The notes under the pieces were generated by a model. The model was not told where the DNA came from. It searched no databases and was given only the letters and a program-made list of their open reading frames with translations. A DNA stretch of 64,000 nucleotides from the NCBI GenBank assembly GCA_022825725.1, contig JAJDWE010000033.1:87926-151925 (forward strand), given 5' to 3'. Both the position numbers and the translations under genes were made by a program. This DNA is from Gemmatimonadota bacterium. Lineage in GTDB: Bacteria; Gemmatimonadota; Gemmatimonadetes; Palauibacterales; Palauibacteraceae. Each line of letters begins with the position of its first letter. Positions within the stretch are counted from its first letter, which is position 1. This document shows, piece after piece, positions 2,466 to 29,979 of the stretch.

Positions 2466-3821
2466 ATGGAACGAGACAGACGCGAGACGTTCGGTTCACG
2501 CTTCGGGCTCGTGGCCACGATGATCGGCGTCGCCGTCGGTCTCGGGAACGTCTGGCGCTTCCCGTACATGGTCGGCGAGTTCGGCGGGGCTCCCTTCGTG
2601 GCCTTCTACGTCTTGGCCGTGGTGCTGATCGGGGTTCCCGCGCTCATGGCGGAATGGACGCTGGGCCGGCACACCCGCCGCGGCCCGGTCGGCGCGTTCG
2701 AGTCCGGCGGTCTCCCCTTCGGCCGCGCCCTCGGCTGGATCTTCTTCGTCGGCGTCACCGCCGCCACCGGCTACTACTCGAACGCGCTCGGCTGGGTGCT
2801 GTACCATGCCCTGGCCGGGCTGCTCTCCGGCGTCGGGGTCGAGATCGACGCCGCAGCGATCCTGCCCCCGGATGAGGGGTTCTCCCTCCGCTCCTTCCTG
2901 CTGCAGTGCATCTGCACCGGCGCCGTCCTCCTCACCTGCGCCGCCGTGCTGCGGCGCGGGCTGCGGGGCGGGATCGAGAAGGCGAGCCGCTTCATCGTTC
3001 CGGCGCTCCTCGCGGGGCTCGTGATCCTCATCGCTCGCTCGCTCACGCTGCCGGGGGCGGGAGAGGGTCTCCGCTGGTACCTCGGCGCCTTCGATCCCGG
3101 CGCGCTCACGCCGCCCGTCATGCTGGGGGCGCTGGGCCAGGCGATCTTCAGCCTCTCTCTGGGCGGCACCTTCATGGTCGTGTACGGTTCCTACCTGAAC
3201 CGCGACGACCCCCTGCGCGGCAACGCGGTCTTCACCGCGGGAGGCGACCTGTGCGCCGGACTCATGGCGGGGCTCGCCATCTTCCCCGCCGTGTTCGCGT
3301 TCGGACTCGAACCGGCGAGCGGCCCCGGTCTGCTCTTCGTCACGCTGCCCGAGGTGTTCGGCCGGATCCCCGCCGGAGCCGTGTTCGGAACGCTCTTCTT
3401 CCTGGCCCTGTTCGGGGGCGCCTACCTGTCGGATGTGGCGGCGCTGGAAGTACTCGTGGCCGGGGTCACCGACAACACCGGGCTCGGCCGCTCGCGCGCG
3501 GTCACGCTGACGACCGTGGTCGTGTTCGCCTTCGCGCTGCCCCCGATGATCAACATGAACGTCTTCACGCCCTGGGACCTGACCTTCGGATCGGGCTTCC
3601 AGACGCTCGGCGCGCTGCTCTCGGTCGTCGCCGTGGGGTGGGCCCTGGACCGCTCCGAAGTGCTGCGGCAGCTGGCGGCGGGCGGGAACCGGCGCGCGAA
3701 GCGGGGCGTGCCGGCGATCTGGCTCTACTACTGGCTCCGTTTCGTGATCCCCGCCGCGATCCTCGCCGTCGGCGCCTGGTGGCTCCTCACCGACGTGCTC
3801 GGCCTCTTCGCAGGGGCGTGA
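2466..3821 (+). CDS. Neurotransmitter:sodium symporter (NSS/SNF, SLC6-like) family transporter.
   Basis: The N-terminus RETFGSRFGLVATMIGVAVGLGNVWRFPY carries the NSS signature G-N-x-W-R-F-P-Y. It is a 12-TM type protein of 451 aa. Confidence 0.9.
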   Translation: MERDRRETFGSRFGLVATMIGVAVGLGNVWRFPYMVGEFGGAPFVAFYVLAVVLIGVPALMAEWTLGRHTRRGPVGAFESGGLPFGRALGWIFFVGVTAATGYYSNALGWVLYHALAGLLSGVGVEIDAAAILPPDEGFSLRSFLLQCICTGAVLLTCAAVLRRGLRGGIEKASRFIVPALLAGLVILIARSLTLPGAGEGLRWYLGAFDPGALTPPVMLGALGQAIFSLSLGGTFMVVYGSYLNRDDPLRGNAVFTAGGDLCAGLMAGLAIFPAVFAFGLEPASGPGLLFVTLPEVFGRIPAGAVFGTLFFLALFGGAYLSDVAALEVLVAGVTDNTGLGRSRAVTLTTVVVFAFALPPMINMNVFTPWDLTFGSGFQTLGALLSVVAVGWALDRSEVLRQLAAGGNRRAKRGVPAIWLYYWLRFVIPAAILAVGAWWLLTDVLGLFAGA

Positions 3822-3846
3822 CTCCCCGAGGGCGACGGATCCCGGT

Positions 3847-5076
3847 TCAACGTTCGCCTTCCGGAGCCCGTCCCATGGCGCGCAGGAGGTCCCAGTAGTC
3901 GATCCACGCCGCGGATCGCATGGAGAGGGCGCTGAGCCGCGCGCTCCGGAAGGCGTTCGCCGCGTCGAGCAACTCCAGAAGCGACATCTCGTTCTCTCCG
4001 TACGCCGCTGTCGCCGAGGCGAGGAGCGCCTCGGCATCCGCCAACAGGCCGTCGGCTGCCGTTTCGAGACGGGCGCGACTGGAGGCATAGCGGTCCGAGG
4101 CCGTCAGGAGATCGTTCTCCGCCAACCGTCTCTGGAGGTCGAGGCGATGGGCGGCCGCGGCGCTCCGGGCGTCAGCTGCCTGCCGGTTCCCCCCTCCTCG
4201 GTTGAACAACGGCAGCGGGAGATCGAGACCCAGGCTGAGTCCCTGGAATCCGCCCTCCTGCCGTCGATATCCCAGACTGACGGTCGGATCGGGCATCCAG
4301 CCGGACCTCGCAACGGCGAGGTCGGCCTGCGCGGCGTCCAGATCCCGGGCCGCGGCCTCGAGGTCCGGCCGCTCGAGCAGCGCGCCGAGTGCGGCTTCCC
4401 GAGTCACCGGGGGCGGTAGCCCTTCCAGCCCCGCGGACGGTCCGACCTCCTCGATTCCCGTCCCGGGAAAGGTGAGCGCGGCGAGGCGCCGGCGGGCGTC
4501 GCGAGACCGGAGTTCGGCCTCCGCAACAACCTGCTCTGCCTGCACCCGTTCCAGTCGCAGCCGCCGCGTTTCGTAAGCGGAGATGTCTCCCTCCTCCAGG
4601 CGGATCTCCGCATCCTCGGCGACGTCCTGGATCACCGCCACGGCCTGCCGCGCCGTGAGTTCCGCCTCTTCCGCAAACCAGGCGAGCGCCCAGGCCTCGC
4701 GAACCTCGAAGGCGAGCCGGGTCGAGTCGCTGCGGAAACGGGCGGTGCTCGCTTCGATCGTGTGGGCGGCCGCCCGGTAGCGGGCGGCGGTCCGGCCGGG
4801 CCATTCCAGGGGTTGAAAGAGGAGCAGGTTCTCCTCCCAGTACTCGTCGCCATTCCGGTCGAGGTCGTCGCGCCTGGCCGAAAGCGACGGGTTGAACCAG
4901 GCACGAGACTGGCGCGCGACTCCCGCGATCTCGGCGGCCTCGGAGCGCGCGATCCTCAGCGCGAGGCTGTTCTCTGCGAACGCCTCGAGGGCTGCCGCGA
5001 GCGAGACTCGGCGTACGGTTTCCTGACCGAGGGTCGGGCGCGGCAGAAGGAGAAGGGCGACAAGCCCCGGAAGCAT
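3847..5076 (-). CDS. Outer membrane efflux protein (TolC/OprM/CzcC-like outer membrane factor).
   Basis: Signal peptide MLPGLVALLLLPRPTLGQ. Two repeated coiled-coil/beta-barrel halves with the characteristic SLLELLDAANAFRSARLSAL and WMPDPTVSLGY motifs of the OEP family. The start was chosen at the internal ATG that gives a signal peptide. Confidence 0.75.
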   Translation of the reverse strand: MLPGLVALLLLPRPTLGQETVRRVSLAAALEAFAENSLALRIARSEAAEIAGVARQSRAWFNPSLSARRDDLDRNGDEYWEENLLLFQPLEWPGRTAARYRAAAHTIEASTARFRSDSTRLAFEVREAWALAWFAEEAELTARQAVAVIQDVAEDAEIRLEEGDISAYETRRLRLERVQAEQVVAEAELRSRDARRRLAALTFPGTGIEEVGPSAGLEGLPPPVTREAALGALLERPDLEAAARDLDAAQADLAVARSGWMPDPTVSLGYRRQEGGFQGLSLGLDLPLPLFNRGGGNRQAADARSAAAAHRLDLQRRLAENDLLTASDRYASSRARLETAADGLLADAEALLASATAAYGENEMSLLELLDAANAFRSARLSALSMRSAAWIDYWDLLRAMGRAPEGER

Positions 5077-5262
5077 GATGTAGCGGATGTTGGATTCCCT
5101 CGTCGTGATAGCCCGGATCTCAGGGCCAACCTCACGAATCGCCGCGCCGCACAGCAAGGGCGCCCGACGTGACGAGTGACCTCGCGGGTCGGTTCGACGT
5201 CAGTCTATCGTGCCGCCGCATCTGACGTCGGTCACCCGGGCGTGATCGCCCACGCATTCCCG

Positions 5263-19746: not shown

Positions 19747-20901
19747 TCAGTCGGCCAGTACTTCCGTCAGCGTATCCGCCACCTCGTCGATCTGTGCTTC
19801 GGTGATCACGAGCGGCGGCAGCAGCCGGATGACCGTGGTGCCGGCCGGGAGGGCGAGGACGCCCCGCTCCGCGAGAGCTCCCAGGTGGGGTCGGCAGCGC
19901 TCGCGGAGTTCGACGCCGATCATGAGGCCCACCTGCCGCACGGCGCGCACGCGAGCCGACTGGCGTCGGGCGAAACGCTCGCTGAAGCGGGCGCCCAGCG
20001 CCTCCGCCCGATCGTCGAGCCGCTCATCCCGCATGAAGCGGATCGCGGCCAGGGCGGCGGCGCTGGCGAGCGGATTGCCGCCGAAGGTCGTGCCGTGCTG
20101 CCCGGGCGGCGGCTGCAGCCGTTCATGCGCCAGGACCGCTCCCAGCGGCACGCCGCCCGCGATCGCCTTCGCGAGGCAGAGCACGTCCGGCGCGACGCCG
20201 TAGCGGTCGCAGGCGAACATGCGGCCGGTGCGGCAGAAGCCCGTCTGGATCTCGTCGAACACGAGGACCGCACCGGCCTCGTCGCAGATGCGGCGCGCCG
20301 CCGACAGATAGTCCTGGCTGGCCGGCCGCACCCCGCCCTCTCCCTGCACCGGTTCGATGATGACCGCCGCCGTGTCCTCGTCCACGGCCGCGCGCAGTTT
20401 CTCGACGTGGTTGAACGGCACGAACGAGAACCCGGGCACGAGGGGCTCGAACGGTTCCCGGTACTGTTTTTTATGCGTCGCGCTCAGCGCACCCAGCGTT
20501 CGCCCGTGGAAGCCGCGCATGGCGGACACGACCCCCGCCCGTCCCGTTGCGAGGCGCGCGAACTTGATCGCCGCCTCCACCGCCTCCGCCCCCGAATTGC
20601 AGAGGAAGGCGCGCGTGAGCCCCGCCGGCGCGATCGAGACGAGTTCGGCCAGCAACCGCGCCCGGACATCGTTGTAGAAGATCCCGGGACAGGACACGAG
20701 GACCCGAGCCTGCTCCGCCAACGCCTCGGCGACGGCCGGGTTGGCGTGGCCGATGCTCGCCACGCCGATGCCGCCGACGCAGTCGATATAGCGGCGACCC
20801 TCGTCGTCCCACACGCACGCGCCCTCGCCCCGCACGACCGCGATGTCGCGCTTCGGGAACACCTCGAGCGCATACTCCCGCTCCGTCTCGCGCGCGTTCA
20901 T
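19747..20901 (-). CDS. argD/lysJ: Class III PLP aminotransferase, acetylornithine / [LysW]-aminoadipate-semialdehyde aminotransferase (ArgD/LysJ).
   Basis: Start MNARETEREYALEVF. Motifs include DCVGGIGVASIGHANP and DEIQTGFCRTG, plus the Lys in CLAKAIAGG. Its 4-bp overlap with the upstream lysZ stop indicates translational coupling. Confidence 0.85.
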   Translation of the reverse strand: MNARETEREYALEVFPKRDIAVVRGEGACVWDDEGRRYIDCVGGIGVASIGHANPAVAEALAEQARVLVSCPGIFYNDVRARLLAELVSIAPAGLTRAFLCNSGAEAVEAAIKFARLATGRAGVVSAMRGFHGRTLGALSATHKKQYREPFEPLVPGFSFVPFNHVEKLRAAVDEDTAAVIIEPVQGEGGVRPASQDYLSAARRICDEAGAVLVFDEIQTGFCRTGRMFACDRYGVAPDVLCLAKAIAGGVPLGAVLAHERLQPPPGQHGTTFGGNPLASAAALAAIRFMRDERLDDRAEALGARFSERFARRQSARVRAVRQVGLMIGVELRERCRPHLGALAERGVLALPAGTTVIRLLPPLVITEAQIDEVADTLTEVLAD

Positions 20902-21710
20902 CCGATGACCGTACCCCGTCCGGCCAGCGCCTCCGTGACCGGATGTTCGACGCACCCGTCCGCGATCACCACGCGCGTCGTGCCGGACTCCGCGACTCGC
21001 CGCAGGGCGAGCAGTTTGCGCTTCATGCGCCCGCGTGCCTCGCTCTCGCGACGCGCCAGCTCCGCGCGCCCGAGCCGTGCGACGACCGACGCCGGATCGT
21101 CAGGGTCCGCCAGGAATCCGGGCGCCTCGATCAGCTGGATCACGCAGTCCGCTCGCAATTCGTCGCTCAGCAGGGTCACGACGTCATCGTTCTCCGAGTT
21201 GATCGCCACGTTGTGCTCGTCGATGAGGGGCACGGTGACCACCGGCGTGAACCCGCCATCGAGGAGCAACGCCAGCAGCTTGCGGTTCACCTCCACCGGT
21301 TTCCCGGACAGGTCCCGTTTGATCAGCGTCTTGCCGCCCTCCCTCACCCGGATGCCCCGGTTGCGGCGACCGCGCACGAGCGCGCCGTCGAGCCCGGTGA
21401 GCCCGACCGCGTTCACGCCCTGGCCCTGCAGCAGTTCCACGATGCGCTTGTTTCGCAGGCCCGCGTAGGCCATGAGCATCACGTCGATCAGGTCGCGGTC
21501 GGAGTGTACACTCTCCTGTCCGGACACGGACGTGAGGATGCGCTTCTCGACCCCGAGCCTCCGAGCCAGCGAATCGCGCAGCGCGTTCGCGCCGTGCACG
21601 ATGACGAACGGACCGGACAAGCCCGCGAGGTCGCGAGCGATCCCCTCGAGATTGATGGATTCTCCGCCGCCGATCTTGACGAGAAGCAGCCCGTCGGATT
21701 CGCCCGGCAT
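20898..21710 (-). CDS. lysZ/argB: Short-form amino acid kinase, [LysW]-aminoadipate / acetylglutamate kinase (LysZ/ArgB).
   Basis: 270 aa. LLLVKIGGGESINLEG...FVIVHGAN...GLTGLDGALV has the AAK-family glycine-rich motifs, and the length is typical of LysZ. Confidence 0.85.
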   Translation of the reverse strand: MPGESDGLLLVKIGGGESINLEGIARDLAGLSGPFVIVHGANALRDSLARRLGVEKRILTSVSGQESVHSDRDLIDVMLMAYAGLRNKRIVELLQGQGVNAVGLTGLDGALVRGRRNRGIRVREGGKTLIKRDLSGKPVEVNRKLLALLLDGGFTPVVTVPLIDEHNVAINSENDDVVTLLSDELRADCVIQLIEAPGFLADPDDPASVVARLGRAELARRESEARGRMKRKLLALRRVAESGTTRVVIADGCVEHPVTEALAGRGTVIG

Positions 21711-21713
21711 CGG

Positions 21714-22370
21714 TCAGAACGTCCCGATGGCGCGGTTGGCCACCGGCGTCCAGGCCCCCCGCCCGTCCGAAGCCGGATAGGGCGCCGAGCACAGAATCCG
21801 CACGCCGTTCCGCCGGGCGGCATGCATCCGGAAGTAGTCCGGGTCCTCGTTGAATCGGGTCGCGAAGTGGACCCGCCGCGACGCGTCGGCGATGATCAGA
21901 TTCATCGCCCGCACGTAACGGGTACGCTTCTCGATCGCATTGAGTCCCCGCTCCAGAGCACGGCCCATGTCTCCATCATCGAAACGCTTGACGAAGTTGA
22001 ACACCTTCTCCGCGCCGATCCGCCCCCGTTCCTTGATCCGCACTCCGTGCAGCTCCCCGTTGAAGATGAACGCGCGTTCCCCGTCGAAGAACGGCATGTT
22101 GTTCTCGATCCGTATCCCCTCTCCGCGATACGCGCTCCTCGCGTGCGCGAGCAGAAGCCTAGTGCGCCCGGGCGGCGCCGCGCCGTCCTCCCACACCGGC
22201 GAGATGTTGCGGTAGACGCGCCACCCGTCGGACCCGTCGGCATCGATCCAGGCGCACCCCCACCCGTCGCCCTGATACTCGGGACTCTCTCGGGCGAGCT
22301 GCGCGAAGGCGGCGAGGTGCGGCTCCATGTCGAAGGGCTCGTCGCTGCGGACGCAGAGGATGCGGCACAC
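21714..22370 (-). CDS. Class II glutamine amidotransferase-like Ntn hydrolase (YafJ/EgtC-like, N-terminal Cys2 nucleophile), embedded in the LysW operon.
   Basis: Begins MCRILCVRS (Met-Cys nucleophile). DGWGCAW, LLLAHARSAYRGEGIRIENNMPFF and FIFNGELHG match the YafJ-type GATase-II pattern. It lies 3 nt from the lysZ start and 25 nt from the lysY stop. Confidence 0.8.
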   Translation of the reverse strand: MCRILCVRSDEPFDMEPHLAAFAQLARESPEYQGDGWGCAWIDADGSDGWRVYRNISPVWEDGAAPPGRTRLLLAHARSAYRGEGIRIENNMPFFDGERAFIFNGELHGVRIKERGRIGAEKVFNFVKRFDDGDMGRALERGLNAIEKRTRYVRAMNLIIADASRRVHFATRFNEDPDYFRMHAARRNGVRILCSAPYPASDGRGAWTPVANRAIGTF

Positions 22371-22395: not shown

Positions 22396-23418
22396 TCAGG
22401 CCGGATGCAGCCCGGGGAACTCGAGGCCCCGCGACTCCGGCAACCCGTGCATCACGTTGAACGCCTGCACCGCCTGTCCCGCCGCTCCCTTCATGAGATT
22501 GTCGATCGCGCTCAGGACGACGACCCGGCTCGAGAGCGGATCGCGCTCGAACCCCACGTCACAGTAGTTCGCGCCCGCCAGGAGGTTGGGGTCGGGATAG
22601 CGGTGGATGCCGCTCCGCTCCTTGACGATGCGTACGAACGGTTCGTCGGCGTACGCGCTCCGATAGATCTTCCACAACGCCTTCTCATCGAGATCCCGGT
22701 TCAGGAATACATGACAGGTGGCGAGGACGCCGCGCACCATTTCAACCGCCGTCGCAGAGAAATGCACGTCGCCGCCGAGCACTGCGGCGATCTCGGCCGC
22801 GTGGCGGTGGCCCGTCGGCCGATACGACCGCATGGCGCCGCTGCGCTCCGGGTGGTGGCTGCCCTCGCTGGCGCGGTTCCCGGCCTCGCTCGATCCCACC
22901 TTCACCTCGATCACGACCGAGTCCGCGACCCCCTCCCGGTACAGCGGCAGAAGCCCGAGGATGGAAGCCGTCGCGTTGCAGCCCGCGCACGCGACGAGAT
23001 CCGCGGCCGCCAGCGCCTCGCGGTTCACCTCCGCGATCCCGTACACGAACGATCCCAGGAGTTCCGGCCGAGGGTGCGGCCGGCCGTAGAAGCGCTCGTA
23101 GTCGGCCCCGTCCTCGAGCCGGAAGTCCGCGCCCAGGTCGACGATCCGCCCCGCCAGAGACCGGAACTCGTCGATGCGGCGGGACGATTCCCCGTGCGGG
23201 AGACAGAGGAAGAGCACGTCGCACTCCGACAGCTCCTCGAGCGCGCTGAAGCGCAGTCGCGTGACGCCGCGCAGGTTGGGATGGACCCGGGGCGCGAACC
23301 GTCCCGCGAAGCGCTCCGATGTGATCTGCCGCACCTCGACGTCGGGATGGCCGAGCAGGAGCCTCAACAGTTCCCCGCCGGCGTAGCCCGAGCCGCCCGC
23401 GATCGACGCGCGGATCAT
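22396..23418 (-). CDS. argC/lysY: N-acetyl-gamma-glutamyl-phosphate / [LysW]-aminoadipyl-phosphate reductase (ArgC/LysY).
   Basis: [21 protein letters not shown] (NAD(P)-binding), active-site Cys in [15 protein letters not shown]-terminal [16 protein letters not shown]. Confidence 0.85.
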
Positions 23419-24263
23419 CGGTCCGCCGCCCGGTCCGGCGAGACGACGTAGGACACGATCCTCTCCGGAATGTTCACGCCGGTCGCCTCGATGCTATTCC
23501 GGAACTCCATCGTGTAGTTCACCTCGTTGACCAGCAGTTCCCCCCCGCTCTCCAGCAGATCCACCGCGACCACGCCCCCGCCCATGGCGGCCGCCGCCCG
23601 CAGGGACAGCTCCGCGATCTCGCTCGTCACCGGACAGTTCGAGGCCGTTCCGCCGCGGGCCGTATTCGTGATCCAGTGCTCGGACGACCGGAAGATGGCC
23701 GCCACGCAGTCGTCTCCGACGACGAACGCGCGGATGTCGCGCCCGCCCTTCTCGACGTACTTCTGCACGAAGAAGATCGAGTGATGATAGCTGCCCAGGA
23801 TCGCCTTGTGTTCGAGGACCGTCTCCGCCGCGTGCCGGTCGTTGATCCTCGACAGCAGGCGGCCCCAGGAGCCGACCGCGGGCTTGAGGACCACGGGATA
23901 ACCGAGTTCCTCAATGGCCTCGAGCGCGGACTCCTCGGTGAACGCGACCCTGGCCTCGGGCTGCGGCACGCCGCATTCCTGGAGCGACGCCGCGGTGAGG
24001 ATCTTGTCTCCGCAGCGGCGCGACACCTCGTAGCGGTTCACGCAATCGAGACCGGCCCCCTCGAAAAGTCGCAACGCGTGCATGGCCCGCGAGTGGTTGA
24101 TGCAGCGCTCGAGAACGACGTCGACGTCCGGGACGTTCCGGAAATCGAACGCGAGTTTGCGGTCGTCCAGAAACACCAGTTCGACGTCGCCGCGCCCGCG
24201 CAACTCCGCGATCAGCAGCTTCTCGTCCTTGCGGATGAGGGAATGAAGAAAGCCGACTCTCAT
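23415..24263 (-). CDS. lysX: RimK-type ATP-grasp ligase LysX/ArgX (ligates substrate to the gamma-carboxyl of the LysW C-terminal Glu).
   Basis: Start [24 protein letters not shown]-grasp motifs ([54 protein letters not shown]). 4-bp ATGA overlaps with lysW upstream and lysY downstream. Confidence 0.85.
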
Positions 24264-24424
24264 TCGCCCCAGTCCTCCTCCGCGTCCGGCGCCTCTCCAA
24301 GGGTGATGGGGTCGAGGGCGAGGATCTCGAGTTCGACGCCGCACTCCTCGCATTCGAGCAACTCACCCTCGACGGGGTCGTCGGAAATCGTCGGTTCCGC
24401 GCCGCATACAGGACATTCCGGCAT
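24260..24424 (-). CDS. lysW: Amino-group carrier protein LysW (54 aa, zinc-finger N-terminus, C-terminal EDWGE).
   Basis: Own translation of the minus strand: [54 protein letters not shown]. It has the CPxCG...CxxCG zinc ribbon and ends in ...EDWGE, the LysW hallmark. It is below the ORF-track size cut-off. GAGG lies about 9 nt upstream of the ATG. Confidence 0.85.
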
Positions 24425-24475: not shown

Positions 24476-25180
24476 TCAGTCCGCCGCCGGGTTCCGGAAA
24501 GGAAGCCGCAGCGCCAGGAAAAGCACGATGGCCACGGGTTCCACGAGCAGAATGTACCACGGCCAGCCCGGGAAGACGTCCAGTATCGATGCGGTCGGCG
24601 GCTTGTCGATGAGATACAGGTAGTTGGACCCGAGTACGCGGTTGATGGGATATACCGCGACGGCGTACACGTTCAGCAGCCCGAGCGCCAGCCATGGATC
24701 GCGCGCCTTCGGCCGGTAGTCCTCCACCGTCACCGCCCACACGCCCGCGATGACGGCGATTCCGTGAGACGCCATCGTCTCGTAGAAGGCGAAATGGAGA
24801 ACGCCGTGGGACGCATCGGGTGTCAGCACGGCCTGAACGGCCCCCGCGACGCCGAAGAAGTACATGAGCCGAAGGGTCCAGAGGTGCCGCGTCCACAGCC
24901 CGTACACCGTCAACCAGGCCATCGCCGCGCACAGGTGCAGCGGGAGGTCGTTCTGCAGGGTCCATAGCCCCACCGAGGCTTTCCACGTGTGCCTGAGGGC
25001 GAGGAGGAGCACGATCGCAGCGCCCATGGCGAAGCGTAGGCGGCGGCGCCGATCCTCGTCGCCAGTCATGCCTGCCCGGATCAGACAGACTCCGATCGCG
25101 ACCAGCACGCCCATCGTCACGAGATGGACCGGACCGAAGAGATCCAGCGGTACCGACTCCGTCCCGAAGAACCCGCCCAT
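24476..25180 (-). CDS. Integral membrane protein (YwaF/TIGR02206-like, unknown function).
   Basis: 234 aa, about 7 TM helices, conserved LPLHLC motif. The function is unknown and the family assignment is tentative. Confidence 0.45.
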   Translation of the reverse strand: MGGFFGTESVPLDLFGPVHLVTMGVLVAIGVCLIRAGMTGDEDRRRRLRFAMGAAIVLLLALRHTWKASVGLWTLQNDLPLHLCAAMAWLTVYGLWTRHLWTLRLMYFFGVAGAVQAVLTPDASHGVLHFAFYETMASHGIAVIAGVWAVTVEDYRPKARDPWLALGLLNVYAVAVYPINRVLGSNYLYLIDKPPTASILDVFPGWPWYILLVEPVAIVLFLALRLPFRNPAAD

Positions 25181-25224
25181 GTCAGGCTGTCATGCTGCGC
25201 GGGCCGGCCGGACGCGCCACGGGT

Positions 25225-27138
25225 TCACGCATCCGCGTCCGCGAGGGAGGAGGTGGGGATCTCCGGACCCTCCACCCGCCGTCCATCCCGCAGCGTCACG
25301 TACGCCTCCATGGCGTAGTAGGCCGGCAGGCCCAGAGCGGCGAGCCGGTTGGCGGTATCCCGGTTTCGTTCGACGACGCGCTGCCAGAATTCGCGCGGAT
25401 CCGGACCGGGGAAGGGAGCCAGATCCTTCTGCGTTTCGTGCCGGAAGATCGCCTGGACCTTGCCGCGCAGTTCGCCTTCGGAGAGCGGCACGAGGACGGT
25501 GGCTTCGTCCAGACTCCACTCCTGCCAGGCGCCGCGGTAGAGCCAGAGCCACGGGGGGTCGCCGCGGTAACCGGCGAGCGCCGCATCCACCGTCTCGAGG
25601 CACATGCGGTGCGTGCCGTGCGGATCGGACAGGTCCCCGGCGGCGAACACGATCGTCGGCCGCACCTGCTCCAGCAGCTGCGCGACGATCTCCACGTCCT
25701 CCGACGTGATCGGGTTCTTCTTCACCGCTCCCGTCTGATAGAACGGCTGGTTCAGAAAGCGGGCGCGGTCGGCGGAGAGCCCCAGCGATTCGATCGCGGC
25801 CGTGGCCTCCGTCTCGCGGATGATCCGCTTGAGTTGTTGAACCACGCCGGGATCGACGTCCCCCGGCTCCTTGCGGGCGAGCCGGTCCTCGAGAGACCGC
25901 AGCAGCTCCCCGAGGCTTGCGGCGTCGCCAAGGTCGATGACGCCGGCCGCGCGCCGCAGGAAGTCCAGGTACCGGCGCACCTCGTGGTCGAAGACGGCGA
26001 TGTTCCCGGACGTCTGATATGCCACGGTGACGTGGTTGCCGTTCTCGACGAGCTTGCGCAGCAGGCCGCCCATCGAGATCACATCGTCGTCCGGGTGGGG
26101 CGAGAAGACGACGATGTTCTGGCCGCGCGGCAGCCGGCTCTTGCCCCGGATCTTGGAGATGAGCGCGTTGAAGACCTGTCCGTTGAGCGGTTCGGCCGAA
26201 CCGTGCCGGGAGGTGAGCGGGGCGAGGTGGTTGGCGCGATAGTCGTCGGTCGCGAGGTGCAGGATCGACTTGTCGATGCGTTCGCTCAGCCAGATGACGG
26301 CCGCGGTCTCGCGCTCCGCCGTCCACTCCACATCGCCCACGAGCCACGGCGTGCGGACGCGGGTGAGATCGGAAGCGGCGGCCGGATCGAGATAGACCGT
26401 CGCGGCGGCGTGTTGCTGCAGAAAGGTCGCGGCGACATCCGCGTGGACCTCCCCCTCGACGGCTCGACGCACGATCCCGGCCTTGTGTTCGCCCGTCGCG
26501 AGCAGCACGACTTCCCGCGCTTCGAGAATCGTGGCCACGCCCATCGTGATCGCCTGCGGCGGCACGTTCTCCTCGCCGAAGAAATCGGACGCGGCATCGC
26601 TCCGGGTGACGGTGTCCAGGTAGAGCCGCCGGGTGCGGGAGTCGCGCTCGGACCCCGGCTCGTTGAAGCCGATGTGACCGCTGCGCCCGATCCCGAGAAT
26701 CTGGAAGTCGATCCCGCCCGCCAGCCGGATTCGGCGCTCGTACTCGACGCAGTGCGCCTCGACCTCCGCTTCCGGCACGTCACCTCGAGGGATGTGGCGG
26801 TGTTCCGCCGGGATGTTCACATGGTCGAACAGGTGCTCCCGCATGTAGCGGTGATAACTGTGCAGGCTGCCGGGCCGCATCGGGAAGTACTCATCGAGGT
26901 TGAAGGCGACCGCGTTGGAGAAGTCGAGTCCTTCGTCCCGATGCAGGCGGATGAGTTCCCGATAGACGCCGACGGGCGTGGCGCCGGTTGCGAGGCCGAG
27001 GACGACGGAGCGCCCGTTCTCCGCCCTCTCTCGCAGGAGCGCCGCGATCCGGCCCGCGACTTCGGCGGCGATGCTGTCGTGGTCCGGCATGATCCGGACG
27101 GGCACACGTTCCCTCCGCGCGTGTGCGGCGACGCTCAT
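25225..27138 (-). CDS. Glucosamine-6-phosphate deaminase (NagB) domain fused to a C-terminal LmbE/PIG-L-like deacetylase domain (long NagB-II type).
   Basis: N-half: LGLATGATPVGVYRELI...FNLDEY...GIGRSGHIGFNEPGS (NagB/6-phosphogluconolactonase fold). C-half: VVFSPHPDDDVISMGG (PIG-L/LmbE zinc-deacetylase motif). The start may be a few codons inside the listed ORF. Confidence 0.75.
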   Translation of the reverse strand: MSVAAHARRERVPVRIMPDHDSIAAEVAGRIAALLRERAENGRSVVLGLATGATPVGVYRELIRLHRDEGLDFSNAVAFNLDEYFPMRPGSLHSYHRYMREHLFDHVNIPAEHRHIPRGDVPEAEVEAHCVEYERRIRLAGGIDFQILGIGRSGHIGFNEPGSERDSRTRRLYLDTVTRSDAASDFFGEENVPPQAITMGVATILEAREVVLLATGEHKAGIVRRAVEGEVHADVAATFLQQHAAATVYLDPAAASDLTRVRTPWLVGDVEWTAERETAAVIWLSERIDKSILHLATDDYRANHLAPLTSRHGSAEPLNGQVFNALISKIRGKSRLPRGQNIVVFSPHPDDDVISMGGLLRKLVENGNHVTVAYQTSGNIAVFDHEVRRYLDFLRRAAGVIDLGDAASLGELLRSLEDRLARKEPGDVDPGVVQQLKRIIRETEATAAIESLGLSADRARFLNQPFYQTGAVKKNPITSEDVEIVAQLLEQVRPTIVFAAGDLSDPHGTHRMCLETVDAALAGYRGDPPWLWLYRGAWQEWSLDEATVLVPLSEGELRGKVQAIFRHETQKDLAPFPGPDPREFWQRVVERNRDTANRLAALGLPAYYAMEAYVTLRDGRRVEGPEIPTSSLADADA

Positions 27139-27141
27139 CGA

Positions 27142-29979
27142 CTAGGGGACCTTCGGCTCCGGTAGCAGCACAAACCGGGCGTACTGGTCGGTGCGGAGGT
27201 AACGGACGGCGGCCTGCCGCACCTGCTCCGCGGTCCAGCTCTCGATCCGCTCGTAGCTCGGTATCCCGTTCAGGTCCCGCCCGGCCCGTTCGAAGGAGGC
27301 CAGCTGCGACAGCCAGTACCGGTTCTCCTGCAGGCTCGTCTCCTTCCCGCGGCGCTGCGTCTCACGGACCTTGTCGACGGTCTCCGCGTCCGGTCCCTCC
27401 GCCTTCAGATTTTCGATCTCCTCGAACACGACGGCGGACAACTCCTCCGCCCGTTCCGGGTCCGAGCCGAAGGAGATGCTGAAGCGATACTCCTCGTCGG
27501 GCCGGTAGCTCAGCGACCCGCTGACGCCGACGCCGTAGGTGCCGCCGAGGTCCTCCCGCAGCACCTCCCGGAGGCGGATGTCCAGGACGTCCGCCATGGC
27601 CGAGATCGCGTTCGACTCCTCCAGCGAGTATTCCGCTTCGCCCGCGAAGATGATCTGCGTGCGGCTCTGCGGCTCCAGACCCTTGTAGACGGTCGTTTCG
27701 ATCGTCCCGGCCGGCGGATCGATCCCGATATCCCGCCAGCTCTCGACACGCCCGAGATTCGGAAGCGCCCCGAGATACTGTTCCACGAGCGGCCGGATCG
27801 CCGCGAGATCAAAGGCTCCCGTGAAGTAGAAGGTGAAGTCGCTCGCGTCCGCGAAACGGTCGAGGTAGACGTCGTACGCCGCGTCGAGGTCGGCCAGCTC
27901 CAGGTACTGCGCAAACTGCGAAAACCTGAGTACCCTCGGGTGCCCCTGCGACATCGTGGCCGAGATCGTGTCGGAAAACACGAAACCGGGATTCGCGCCC
28001 GCATTCGCGAGAAACGCCGTTTGCTGGGCCTTCAGCGCCTCGAACATCGTCTCGTCCCTGCGCGGCGAGGAGAAGTACAGGTAGATGAGTTGGAACGCGG
28101 TTTCCACGTCCTGCGGAGACGCCGATCCACTGACCCCCTCCGAGAGCGAACCGACCGAAGCGGTGACGCGCACCGCCTTGCCGGCCAGCTTCTTCGTCAA
28201 CGCCGTCTGGTCGAATTCGCCGACGCCGGACTGGCTCACGACGCCGAGGGCGAACGACACGCGTCGGTACAGGTCATCGGACAGGATCGACGTGCCGCCG
28301 GGGCTCGTCGCCGAGAAGAGGATCTCGTCGTCCTTGAAGTCCGTGGGCTTGAGGACGACCCGGACGCCGTTCTCGAGGGTCCATATCGTGACCCCCACCT
28401 CGTCGAGGACCTCCTCGCTCGCGACGGGCATGCCATCGGGAGCGACGGGAAGGAGCGGGGCATCGGCCGCCTCGTCCTCGTAGGCCTCGACCTCACGTCC
28501 CCCCACCGCGGCGAACACGCTCAGGAGGTCGTCTTCCGTTGGAGGTTCCAGGCCTTCTTTCGTGGGCGCGCTGGCGAGGACGACGCGTCCCTGCTCGGCC
28601 AGCCACGCCTGGGCGACGCCGTTCGTCTCCTCGAGCGTGATCCCGGGGAGGAAGGCGTCCACCAACTCCATCTGCGTCTCGAGATCGGGATAGGCGCTCC
28701 CCTGGAGAAACACCTGTATGTAGCGGCTCGCGAGCGCGCCGGACTCCTGGTTCTCCCGCTCGGCCAGACGGCGTTCGTATCTCCGCCGGGTGTTCGTCTT
28801 TTCGCGATCCAGCTCGCTCTCGGTGAACCCGTTCTGAACGACGCGCTCGGCCTCGGTGAGGAGCGCTTCGAGCCCGCGCTCGATCCCGCCCTCGGCGACG
28901 ACGGCGACGAGTTGGTAAGCATCCACGCCGCGCGCGAACTGCCCCTGACCCGAAAAACCGACCATGAACGGTGGGTCGGCCTGGAGCCGGAGTTCGTTCA
29001 GCCGCGCGTTCAGCATGCCGGAGTAGAGCCCTTCGACCAGCCCGCGGCGGAAGTCGCCGATGGTGCCGCGAGGGGCGGGCGGCTGCTTGTACAGCACGCC
29101 GACCTGGCTTCCCGGCGCCTCGGGGTCGGTCGCGATCGTGACGAGCGGTGGGTGGTCGATCGGGACTTCGACCGCGATCCGGGGACGCGGCTCCTCGGGC
29201 CCGGTCAGCCCCGCGAACCGCTCGCGGATCATCGCTTCCATATCGGCGCCATCGAAATCGCCGACAGCGACGATCGCCATCAGGTCCGGCCGGTACCAGT
29301 CTTCGTAGAAGCTGCGAAGCCGCTCGACGGGGGCCGTCTCGAGGAGTTCCGGCTTCCCGATCGGGAGTCGTTCCGCGTACAGCGACCCCTGGAACAGGAC
29401 CGGGAACTGCTGATCCTGTATCCGCGCTCCGGCTCCTCGACGGCCGCGCCATTCCTCGATCACAACCCCGCGCTCCTTGTCGACTTCCTCCGGGTCGAAG
29501 AGCACGCCCTGGGCCCAGTCTTCGAGGATCTGGAACGCCGTCGCGAGTGTCTCCGGGTCGTCCATCGGCACCTGGAGCATGTAGACCGTCTCGTCGAAGC
29601 TCGTGTACGCGTTGATATCGGGGCCGAACTGCATCCCGATCGACTCGAGATAGTCGACGAGCGCCTGCTTCTCGAAATTCTCCGTGCCGTTGAACGCCAT
29701 GTGCTCGACGAAGTGCGCGAACCCGAGCTGGTCCTCGTCCTCGAGGATGGAGCCCGCGTTCACGACGAGGCGCAGTTCCGCCCGGTTCTCCGGCTGATCG
29801 TTCTCGTGCACGAAGTAGCGCAGGCCGTTGTCCAGCGTCCCCGTGATGACGGCCGGATCCGGTGGAATCGGATCCGTCGGGGCCGCGGTCTGCGCCGCCG
29901 CTCCGGGAGCGGAGAGCGACGAGAGGAGGATGACGGCGATTGAAACGAAAGCGAAGCCGGACAAGCGGGGGATCTTCAT
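27142..29979 (-). CDS. Secreted M16-family zinc peptidase (pitrilysin/insulinase-like, active and inactive halves fused, 945 aa).
   Basis: Signal peptide MKIPRLSGFAFVSIAVILLSSLSAPGAAAQ. The inverted zincin motif HFVEHMAF (HxxEH) is near the N-terminus, and the second half is duplicated. Confidence 0.85.
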   Translation of the reverse strand: MKIPRLSGFAFVSIAVILLSSLSAPGAAAQTAAPTDPIPPDPAVITGTLDNGLRYFVHENDQPENRAELRLVVNAGSILEDEDQLGFAHFVEHMAFNGTENFEKQALVDYLESIGMQFGPDINAYTSFDETVYMLQVPMDDPETLATAFQILEDWAQGVLFDPEEVDKERGVVIEEWRGRRGAGARIQDQQFPVLFQGSLYAERLPIGKPELLETAPVERLRSFYEDWYRPDLMAIVAVGDFDGADMEAMIRERFAGLTGPEEPRPRIAVEVPIDHPPLVTIATDPEAPGSQVGVLYKQPPAPRGTIGDFRRGLVEGLYSGMLNARLNELRLQADPPFMVGFSGQGQFARGVDAYQLVAVVAEGGIERGLEALLTEAERVVQNGFTESELDREKTNTRRRYERRLAERENQESGALASRYIQVFLQGSAYPDLETQMELVDAFLPGITLEETNGVAQAWLAEQGRVVLASAPTKEGLEPPTEDDLLSVFAAVGGREVEAYEDEAADAPLLPVAPDGMPVASEEVLDEVGVTIWTLENGVRVVLKPTDFKDDEILFSATSPGGTSILSDDLYRRVSFALGVVSQSGVGEFDQTALTKKLAGKAVRVTASVGSLSEGVSGSASPQDVETAFQLIYLYFSSPRRDETMFEALKAQQTAFLANAGANPGFVFSDTISATMSQGHPRVLRFSQFAQYLELADLDAAYDVYLDRFADASDFTFYFTGAFDLAAIRPLVEQYLGALPNLGRVESWRDIGIDPPAGTIETTVYKGLEPQSRTQIIFAGEAEYSLEESNAISAMADVLDIRLREVLREDLGGTYGVGVSGSLSYRPDEEYRFSISFGSDPERAEELSAVVFEEIENLKAEGPDAETVDKVRETQRRGKETSLQENRYWLSQLASFERAGRDLNGIPSYERIESWTAEQVRQAAVRYLRTDQYARFVLLPEPKVP

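Follow-up and report, generated by a model that had tools for sequence, protein, structure and literature searches.

A stand-alone N-terminal-cysteine hydrolase encoded in LysW operons and its predicted role in releasing lysine from the carrier

The LysW operon and the NTN gene

The window analyzed here is a 64,000-nucleotide stretch of a Gemmatimonadota contig (JAJDWE010000033.1) that is ~96% identical to a chromosome of Candidatus Palauibacter (Gemmatimonadota), and its minus strand carries an operon in the order lysW-lysX-lysY-NTN-lysZ-lysJ. The fourth of these six genes, termed NTN herein, encodes a small protein that is predicted to be an N-terminal nucleophile (Ntn) hydrolase acting on the carrier protein LysW. 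An earlier note on this DNA had placed the protein inside a carrier-protein pathway, and the neighboring genes confirm that this is the LysW pathway. Three observations go beyond that note, namely that LysK is the sole missing step, that the Asp that binds the substrate alpha-amino group in related enzymes is Gly in NTN, and that many LysW carriers end in Gln. The genes of the operon are as follows (L and P numbers below are our own handles for loci and proteins).

lysW, 24260..24424, minus strand: 54-amino-acid zinc-ribbon carrier ending ...AEEDWGE (TIGR01206, 57.6 bits, cut-off 53.2); putative substrate of NTN
lysX, 23415..24263, minus strand: ATP-grasp ligase loading alpha-aminoadipate onto LysW (TIGR02144, 331 bits); its ATG overlaps the lysW stop (ATGA)
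lysY, 22396..23418, minus strand: argC-type reductase (TIGR01850, 376 bits); its ATG overlaps the lysX stop
NTN, 21714..22370, minus strand: predicted stand-alone Ntn hydrolase with a Cys nucleophile and a fold like that of class-II glutamine amidotransferases (GATases), 218 amino acids, GTG start
lysZ, 20898..21710, minus strand: [LysW]-aminoadipate kinase (NF010659, 238.9 bits, cut-off 223)
lysJ, 19747..20901, minus strand: class-III aminotransferase (LysJ_Th_th, 480 bits, best NCBIfam match; argD subfamily TIGR00707, 440 bits, cut-off 410)

The lysW/lysX, lysX/lysY and lysZ/lysJ junctions are 4-nucleotide overlaps and the remaining gaps are 3 and 25 nucleotides, with the NTN stop codon lying 3 nucleotides from the lysZ ATG. 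The mechanically called open reading frames (ORFs) of lysX (23415-24353, 312 amino acids) and lysJ (19747-20955, 402 amino acids) extend into the preceding genes, and from homology and the ATGA overlaps the true starts are likely at 24263 for lysX (MRVGFLH...) and at the ATG at 20901 for lysJ (MNARETE...).

The operon holds all of the enzymes of the second half of the LysW-dependent alpha-aminoadipate pathway except LysK, the M20 hydrolase that frees lysine from LysW in the last step. To our knowledge, every version of the LysW pathway described so far ends with this M20 enzyme. The product of the operon was assessed from its LysX, which has F-I-T-NS at the five specificity positions in a gapless alignment to the Thermus thermophilus enzyme (3vpd/1uc8). 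This motif is that of aminoadipate-specific LysX, with I-Y-V-GF characterizing ArgX and Y-I-T-NA the bifunctional enzymes (PMC12998189), and the product in the window is therefore most likely lysine and not ornithine. A LysW-mediated glutamate pathway has been assigned to ornithine synthesis in the Gemmatimonadota (PMC11651109). For the operon in the window, an ornithine or arginine role is less likely given both the LysX motif and a LysZ that scores above the [LysW]-aminoadipate kinase equivalog cut-off; a bifunctional role is possible.

The ORF of NTN corresponds exactly to 21714..22370 (218 codons plus a stop), and its printed start, VCRILC, is fMet-Cys-Arg-Ile-Leu-Cys once the GTG is read as formylmethionine (fMet), which bears out the MCRILC start given in the earlier note, where the strand (minus) was left unstated. 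Mechanical ORFs are plentiful on both strands because the G+C content of the window is 68.8%, and codon-position G+C singles out one coding frame at the NTN site, on the minus strand. The values for this frame at codon positions 1, 2 and 3 (0.65, 0.50 and 0.87) are typical of genuine genes in the window, and a GGAG lies 10 nucleotides upstream of the GTG. Homologues of NTN form 3094 clusters at 90% identity, the nearest being 97% identical, and the Met-Cys-Arg start is kept among them down to 26% identity. These two observations establish NTN as a genuine, conserved gene rather than a fortuitous ORF. The only name given to NTN or its homologues in all naming sources is “hypothetical protein”, and most of the homologues have no precomputed Pfam hit.

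When 1.84 billion cluster representatives were searched exhaustively with a profile, only 520 clusters were returned at E ≤1e-3. Most of these are stand-alone proteins of 205-245 amino acids, and many of the shorter entries resemble fragments. As judged by this search, NTN belongs to a small and distinct family. The lengths (218 amino acids for NTN, ~205-245 for the family) agree with the earlier statement that there is no fused synthase domain. One database ORF of 477 amino acids (P0166) joins an NTN domain (residues 1-153) to a LysZ-type amino-acid-kinase domain (215-401), and this may reflect either a genuine fusion or adjacent NTN and lysZ genes that were joined by a frameshift or by merging.

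Fold, family and active site of NTN

Numbered from Met1, NTN contains QGDGWG at 33-38 (DGWG at 35-38), AHARSA at 75-80 and FNGELHG at 103-109 (NGEL.G at 104-109), and thus the DGWG, AHAR.A and NGEL.G blocks reported previously are all present. The N.HPF block reported with them is not, since residues 89-94 read E-N-N-M-P-F and the spacing is off by one. The canonical His of the class-II amidotransferases is therefore Met in NTN, and the same position is Gln in the other NTN subfamily.

An AlphaFold model of NTN, obtained with an alignment of 24 homologues, has a predicted local distance difference test score of 85 and a predicted template modeling (TM) score of 0.87, and in this model the protein adopts the four-layer alpha-beta-beta-alpha fold of the Ntn superfamily. 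The closest fold in the PDB is that of EgtC (Foldseek E 2e-11, TM 0.73-0.76, 20-21% identity), followed by the glutaminase domains of GlmS, PurF and GFAT. There are 69 PDB matches at E ≤1e-3, and among the 50 matches listed all are EgtC or the glutaminase domains of GlmS, PurF or GFAT. With a profile of 21 diverse members, the best PDB sequence match is 3mdn, a YafJ-type class-II GATase (E 4e-10), and EgtC is also matched. The YafJ/EgtC-type assignment made in the earlier note therefore stands at the level of the fold, yet NTN lies outside the EgtC family proper, with 47.5 bits against the NCBIfam EgtC model (TIGR03442) and an equivalog cut-off of 218.65. Pfam GATase_4 (PF13230) gives 22.1 bits over residues 1-116 only, below its gathering threshold of 23. 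Neither Pfam nor NCBIfam gave an M20 match for NTN and the fold is of the Ntn type, so it is not a member of the LysK/ArgE/DapE family and is at most a functional analogue of LysK.

The residues that remain invariant in members down to 26% identity are C2, R3, Q33, G36, G38, W60, H76, R78, P93 and N104, together with G116, G119, N157, Y179 and S195, and G105 and K122 are conserved in ≥90% of members. The feature that defines the superfamily, a Cys directly after the initiator Met, is present, with Cys2 and Arg3 invariant in the 21 members, and M-C-R is the start of those full-length representatives that were inspected. By alignment, R78 corresponds to the Arg of the H-x-R-x-A motif that binds the alpha-carboxylate (R73 of GlmS, and likewise in 3mdn and EgtC) and N104-G105 to the oxyanion-hole NG of 3mdn, EgtC and E. 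coli GlmS (N98-G99). G119 aligns with the D of the ‘TDSE’ motif of 3mdn and with D123 of GlmS. In GlmS and PurF, Arg73 binds the alpha-carboxylate of glutamine, Asn-Gly forms the oxyanion hole and an Asp (D123 in GlmS, D127 in PurF) binds the alpha-ammonium group. Hence the NTN family has kept the machinery for a gamma-glutamyl amide and the binding of an alpha-carboxylate, while the replacement of the Asp by an invariant Gly means that a free alpha-amino group is no longer expected. We infer from the alignments that such a pocket would suit a C-terminal Glu of a protein, which has a free alpha-carboxylate and an alpha-nitrogen engaged in a peptide bond. Based on these features and the model, NTN is a predicted stand-alone Cys-Ntn hydrolase of the class-II amidotransferase type.

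A role as the classical glutaminase subunit of a synthase partner was rejected, as there is no conserved adjoining partner and the Asp that binds the alpha-amino group is lost. The earlier description of this stand-alone protein as a hydrolase or amide-transfer module rather than a classical GATase is upheld.

LysW linkage, the LysK step and Gln-ended carriers

The linkage of NTN to LysW operons was assessed by a scan of one genome per species, which found relatives in 479 genomes, and the best 80 loci were examined. All of these are ≥56% identical to the NTN query owing to the narrower alignment used, and more distant members were examined singly. As determined by tblastn, lysW, lysX, lysY, lysZ and lysJ all lie within 3.5 kb and on the same strand at 67 of the 80 loci, and at least one Lys gene lies beside NTN at 79. 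Where genes are lacking, the locus runs into a contig end or, in one clade of Gammaproteobacteria, the cluster is split. The surroundings of NTN at these 80 loci showed no egt genes. The submitter labels of the loci include the Gemmatimonadota, the Longimicrobiales, the Vicinamibacteria and Marinacidobacterium (Acidobacteriota) and the Calditrichaceae, and, among the Gammaproteobacteria, the Arenicellales, Acidiferrobacteraceae, Ectothiorhodospiraceae and SUP05.

The linkage extends to six of the seven distant members. Specifically, the gene order is W-HCS-X-Y-NTN-Z-J for P0128 (39% identical; HCS, homocitrate synthase), X-Y-NTN-Z-J for P0170 (34%), W-X-Y-HCS-Z-J-NTN followed by a class-I lysyl-tRNA synthetase for P0199 (28%), and W-X-Y-Z-J-NTN for P0256 (27-29%). 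For P0269 (~30%) it is W-X-Y-HCS, the large and small subunits of homoaconitase, homoisocitrate dehydrogenase and then Z-J-NTN, i.e., a complete aminoadipate pathway. There are therefore two gene orders overall, and in the second of these, which we term class B (W-X-Y-(HCS)-Z-J-NTN), NTN starts 1-2 nucleotides after lysJ. The earlier note had named as contrary to its view a pattern in which orthologs lie consistently outside lysW contexts, and no such pattern was seen.

Two features of individual loci should be noted. A class I lysyl-tRNA synthetase (PF01921; L002:8694-10979) and a class II aminoacyl-tRNA synthetase of the Lys/Asp/Asn type (L086:10297-11751) each lie next or next-but-one downstream of a distant NTN-type operon, and these neighbors are consistent with lysine as the product. 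In the Gammaproteobacteria-labelled clade in which the cluster is split (L050, L064, L065, L070, L071 and L077), lysW-lysX-lysY-NTN remain together while lysZ-lysJ are elsewhere (8 kb away in L050), with transporters and a Rieske protein between them. LysW was found at five of these six loci (none was found in L077), and all five end in Gln.

The missing LysK step was examined with a two-motif regular expression for the M20 signature, which detects both the Pyrococcus-type LysK of L211 and DapE of E. coli. The window and 90 NTN loci (1.64 Mb) contained no match to it, and neither did the loci of Gln-ended LysW (0.38 Mb). An independent sample was taken by reading five genomic contexts among the homologues of Thermococcus kodakarensis LysX. 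The operon of the Pyrococcus abyssi LysX (L211) has the order HCS-homoaconitase-homoisocitrate dehydrogenase-W-X-Y-Z-J-M20 and that of a Nitrososphaerota-labelled metagenome-assembled genome (MAG; L214) the order W-X-Y-Z-J-M20, both without NTN. The other three, from the Melioribacteraceae (L212), a Woesearchaeota-labelled MAG (L213) and L215, have X-Y-NTN-Z-J and no M20 gene. NTN and M20 are therefore mutually exclusive in all five of the LysW operons sampled. Moreover, the position of NTN after lysJ in the class-B operons is the position of the M20 gene in the archaeal controls, L211 and L214. A Caldithrix genome paper lists ‘LysWXZYJ and Hcs’ within an eight-gene locus, with no LysK named.

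In the Melioribacteraceae MAG, the NTN-type LysW operon is directly followed by an argC-argJ-argB-argD-argR-argG operon (L212:13904-18846), so that paralogous pathways, one for lysine with a carrier protein and the other for arginine with N-acetyl intermediates, lie side by side. With this complete arg operon adjoining it, arginine synthesis does not depend on the LysW operon, and since that synthesis takes the ArgJ route there is no ArgE there to moonlight as LysK.

The second line of evidence comes from the C-terminus of the carrier itself. The C-terminal Glu of the EDWGE tail of LysW is the attachment site (PMC10433800). Among 79 LysW genes in NTN operons, 71 end in this Glu and the remaining eight, which represent at least three unrelated lineages (41%, 48% and ~69% G+C), end in ...EDWGQ. 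Genes ending in this way are located as follows, the one in the Melioribacteraceae MAG being additional to the eight.

lysW genes ending EDWGQ: L050:6452, L064:8987, L065:7963, L070:7775, L071:7974, L083:5621 and L084:5035
lysW gene ending EDWGQ in the Melioribacteraceae MAG: L212:7637-7807

A scan of the Joint Genome Institute (JGI) metagenomes with a DNA pattern for [E/D]-E-D-W-G-Q-stop gave at least 120 matches (L091-L210), and among the 120 matches listed at least 69 are bona fide Gln-ended LysW genes with two CxxC knuckles. NTN is present, in either gene order, in 20 of the 22 Gln-ended loci among these that reach lysZ, and the remaining two, both of class B, lie on contigs that stop either short of lysJ or 71 nucleotides beyond it, so that every operon complete enough for a verdict carried NTN. 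LysW ends in Glu in both of the LysK-type controls (L211 and L214). A LysW that ends in Gln would need to be deamidated, since the ATP-grasp enzyme LysX cannot activate a gamma-carboxamide, and NTN, with its glutaminase fold and its place in the very operon of the carrier, is the obvious candidate for this LysW-Gln deamidase. The association with LysW-Gln thus provides an independent pointer to the C-terminus of LysW as the substrate of NTN. In the searchable literature, in which subscription journals are thinly covered, we found neither an Ntn/GATase-like enzyme in LysW pathways (the GapMind 2026 preprint included) nor the string EDWGQ or a Gln-terminated LysW.

The metagenome scan also yielded an orphan gene for a LysW-like zinc ribbon ending EDWGQ (L113:6135-6300, minus strand) with no lysX, lysY, lysZ or lysJ nearby. 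Its neighbors, at 2675-5261, encode an AAA ATPase, a protein of the choloylglycine hydrolase family (PF02275, an Ntn hydrolase with an N-terminal Cys) and a GNAT acetyltransferase, and the locus may represent a different carrier-protein system.

Proposed function, its alternatives and related systems

We now put forward the proposal that NTN takes the place of LysK as a LysW gamma-glutamyl amidohydrolase and that LysW-Gln is deamidated by it as well, a prediction that we consider probable, if well short of assured. In the hypothetical mechanism, removal of the initiator Met would expose Cys2 as the N-terminal nucleophile, and the acidic EDWG-Glu tail of LysW would enter the NTN pocket. Arg78 would hold the free alpha-carboxylate of the terminal Glu of LysW in the way that Arg73 of GlmS and PurF holds that of glutamine, while Gly119 would leave space for the peptide bond between Gly(-1) and Glu. 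Cys2 would then attack the isopeptide LysW-gamma-Glu-N(alpha)-Lys at its gamma-carbonyl, the oxyanion hole being supplied by Asn104-Gly105, such that lysine departs and a LysW-gamma-glutamyl thioester forms on NTN. Hydrolysis of this thioester by water would regenerate LysW-Glu for LysX. With a Gln-ended LysW, NH3 would depart in place of lysine by identical chemistry, and the first turnover would thereby convert the inert LysW-Gln to active LysW-Glu.

Several points weigh against this proposal. The M20 search was confined to the loci and the ~10 kb that flank each of them, and in some bacteria that use LysK, presumably including Thermus, lysK does not adjoin the operon. The control sample is small, with five operons, and both of its LysK-type members are archaeal. 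At one locus, L074, the only such case among the 80, NTN stands alone, and the distant member P0186 (L089/L090) lies outside a LysW context on its short contigs. Both the role assigned to Gly119 and the way in which the LysW tail would dock derive from sequence alignments only and may prove different. Finally, the isoelectric points in the NTN family range from 5.0 to 10.0, and a basic net charge is thus not shared by all members as an electrostatic signature of LysW binding would require. A general basic surface of NTN that would receive the acidic LysW was considered and is unsupported by net charge, the only fully conserved basic positions being R3, R78 and K122.

An alternative that we regard as unlikely is that NTN only matures or repairs the carrier by deamidating a terminal Gln, whether encoded by the gene or formed by attack of ammonia on the acyl-phosphate intermediate of LysX, and that an M20 enzyme, LysK or ArgE, encoded elsewhere releases lysine. 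The association of LysW-Gln with NTN fits this, glutaminase-type chemistry directly suits deamidation, and LysK need not cluster with the operon, the search for M20 genes having been limited to the loci. However, LysW is Glu-ended in 71 of the 79 cases and yet NTN is kept there with its catalytic residues invariant, and the mutual exclusion of NTN and M20 in the five sampled operons, together with class-B NTN genes in the LysK position after lysJ, is not what maturation or repair alone would give. A general need for repair is also not evident, because organisms of the LysK type do without NTN.

The proposed amidohydrolase also admits of a broader formulation, in which there are two mechanistic types of LysW system, the NTN type proceeding via a covalent thioester between carrier and enzyme, with a pro-form, LysW-Gln, that is both activated and unloaded by a Cys-Ntn enzyme. 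In its strongest version, NTN would be a transamidase that passes the LysW gamma-glutamyl group from the lysine or Gln amide to the next aminoadipate without ATP, leaving LysX to serve for priming only. Taken together, we hold this formulation and its strongest version to be decidedly improbable.

The specific case of a transamidase, in which a new alpha-aminoadipate resolves the Cys2 thioester through its alpha-amino group in place of water, would couple the release of lysine to reloading without ATP, allow LysW-Gln to be loaded directly and reduce LysX to priming or rescue. The chemistry is the same as that of gamma-glutamyl transfer, Cys-Ntn enzymes by their nature work through a thioester intermediate, LysW-Gln would supply a donor that is already activated, and NTN often lies between lysY and lysZ and not at the end of the operon. 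Nevertheless, LysX is kept in every operon seen, no acceptor-binding feature was identified in NTN, and EgtC and similar stand-alone relatives simply hydrolyze their substrates, so that we consider this very improbable.

There is a slim chance that NTN acts on a small molecule and is merely co-regulated with the lys genes, either as a glutaminase feeding glutamate, the amino donor of LysJ, or as a hydrolase of free gamma-glutamyl compounds. The fold is that of a glutaminase domain, the nearest solved relatives (EgtC and 3mdn) act on or bind small molecules, and a few NTN members occur outside LysW operons. Against this, the Asp for a free alpha-amino group is an invariant Gly, a tight and ancient linkage over two gene orders is unexpected for a generic glutaminase, and both the missing LysK and LysW-Gln are left unexplained. 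Proofreading by NTN, that is, removal from LysW of misloaded amino acids, for example glutamate, would use identical isopeptide chemistry and would suit the measurable side activity of LysX-type ligases with glutamate (PMC12998189), but it is very improbable indeed, as it explains neither the absence of M20 from the operons nor the link to LysW-Gln and needs discrimination between substrates one methylene apart.

The predicted LysW amidohydrolase would share both its reaction and its pathway slot with LysK, the [LysW]-lysine/ornithine hydrolase and M20 homologue of ArgE found in T. thermophilus, Sulfolobus and Thermococcus. The two show no homology, since LysK is a two-metal M20 peptidase of ~330-360 amino acids and NTN a predicted metal-independent hydrolase of ~215 amino acids with an N-terminal Cys. 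Moreover, LysK is not expected to turn a C-terminal Gln into Glu, whereas the chemistry proposed for NTN would. The closest structural likeness to NTN is that of EgtC, the gamma-glutamyl-hercynylcysteine sulfoxide hydrolase (4zfj, 4zfk and 4zfl), which is likewise a stand-alone Cys-Ntn hydrolase, of ~230 amino acids, that cleaves a gamma-glutamyl amide to free an amine product. Both have the DGWG, R-S-A and NG motifs, but the sequences align only over residues 31-117 and the genes lie in egt clusters in the one case and in LysW operons in the other. In addition, the donor of EgtC is a free gamma-glutamyl compound, while that proposed for NTN is the C-terminus of a protein. The domains of GlmS, PurF, GFAT and AsnB and the YafJ-type proteins (GATase_4, 3mdn) have the same Met-Cys N-terminus, Arg, Asn-Gly and four-layer fold as NTN. 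Unlike these class-II amidotransferases, NTN has no synthase domain or partner, has Gly in place of Asp, and has Met or Gln in place of the His of ‘NAHP’.

There is also a parallel in the maturation of protein tags. In mycobacteria, Pup ending in Gln (GGQ) is deamidated to GGE by Dop prior to its ATP-dependent ligation, and the precursors of ubiquitin-like proteins are also processed at the C-terminus. In LysW-Gln the coupling residue is likewise encoded in a blocked form, and its conversion would similarly precede ligation. Dop, which has the carboxylate-amine ligase fold of glutamine synthetase, and the papain-like proteases that process ubiquitin-like proteins are unrelated to NTN. What we propose as new herein is the non-orthologous replacement of the terminal enzyme of the LysW pathway together with a pro-carrier form of LysW.

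How pathways evolve is classically illustrated by the LysW route to lysine and ornithine. If the proposed function of NTN is correct, many bacteria, with relatives of NTN in 479 species-level genomes whose labels include the Gemmatimonadota, Acidobacteriota, Gammaproteobacteria, Calditrichaceae and Melioribacteraceae, use a release enzyme that is non-homologous to LysK and mechanistically different. This would close the gap that lies behind automated calls of lysine or ornithine auxotrophs or of ‘incomplete’ pathways, and ~3000 ‘hypothetical proteins’ would gain a function. It would also mean that the class-II amidotransferase/Ntn fold gains a new class of substrate, the C-terminus of a protein, and that Gln-terminated LysW is a previously unremarked pro-carrier that needs enzymatic activation. 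A simple diagnostic for the family would then be the M-C-R start, a G-x-x-G-A-E/Q-K sequence that replaces the D-S/T-E motif, and a lysW context.

Upstream of lysW in the window, at 24476-29979 on the minus strand, lies a block of genes that is kept in the Gemmatimonadota (L001 and L003-L060). Its members are as follows.

27142-29979, minus strand: two-domain M16 peptidase
25225-27138, minus strand: fusion of NagB-like and PIG-L deacetylase domains (NF002557, 860 bits)
24476-25180, minus strand: TMEM164-family membrane acyltransferase, present in Palauibacter only

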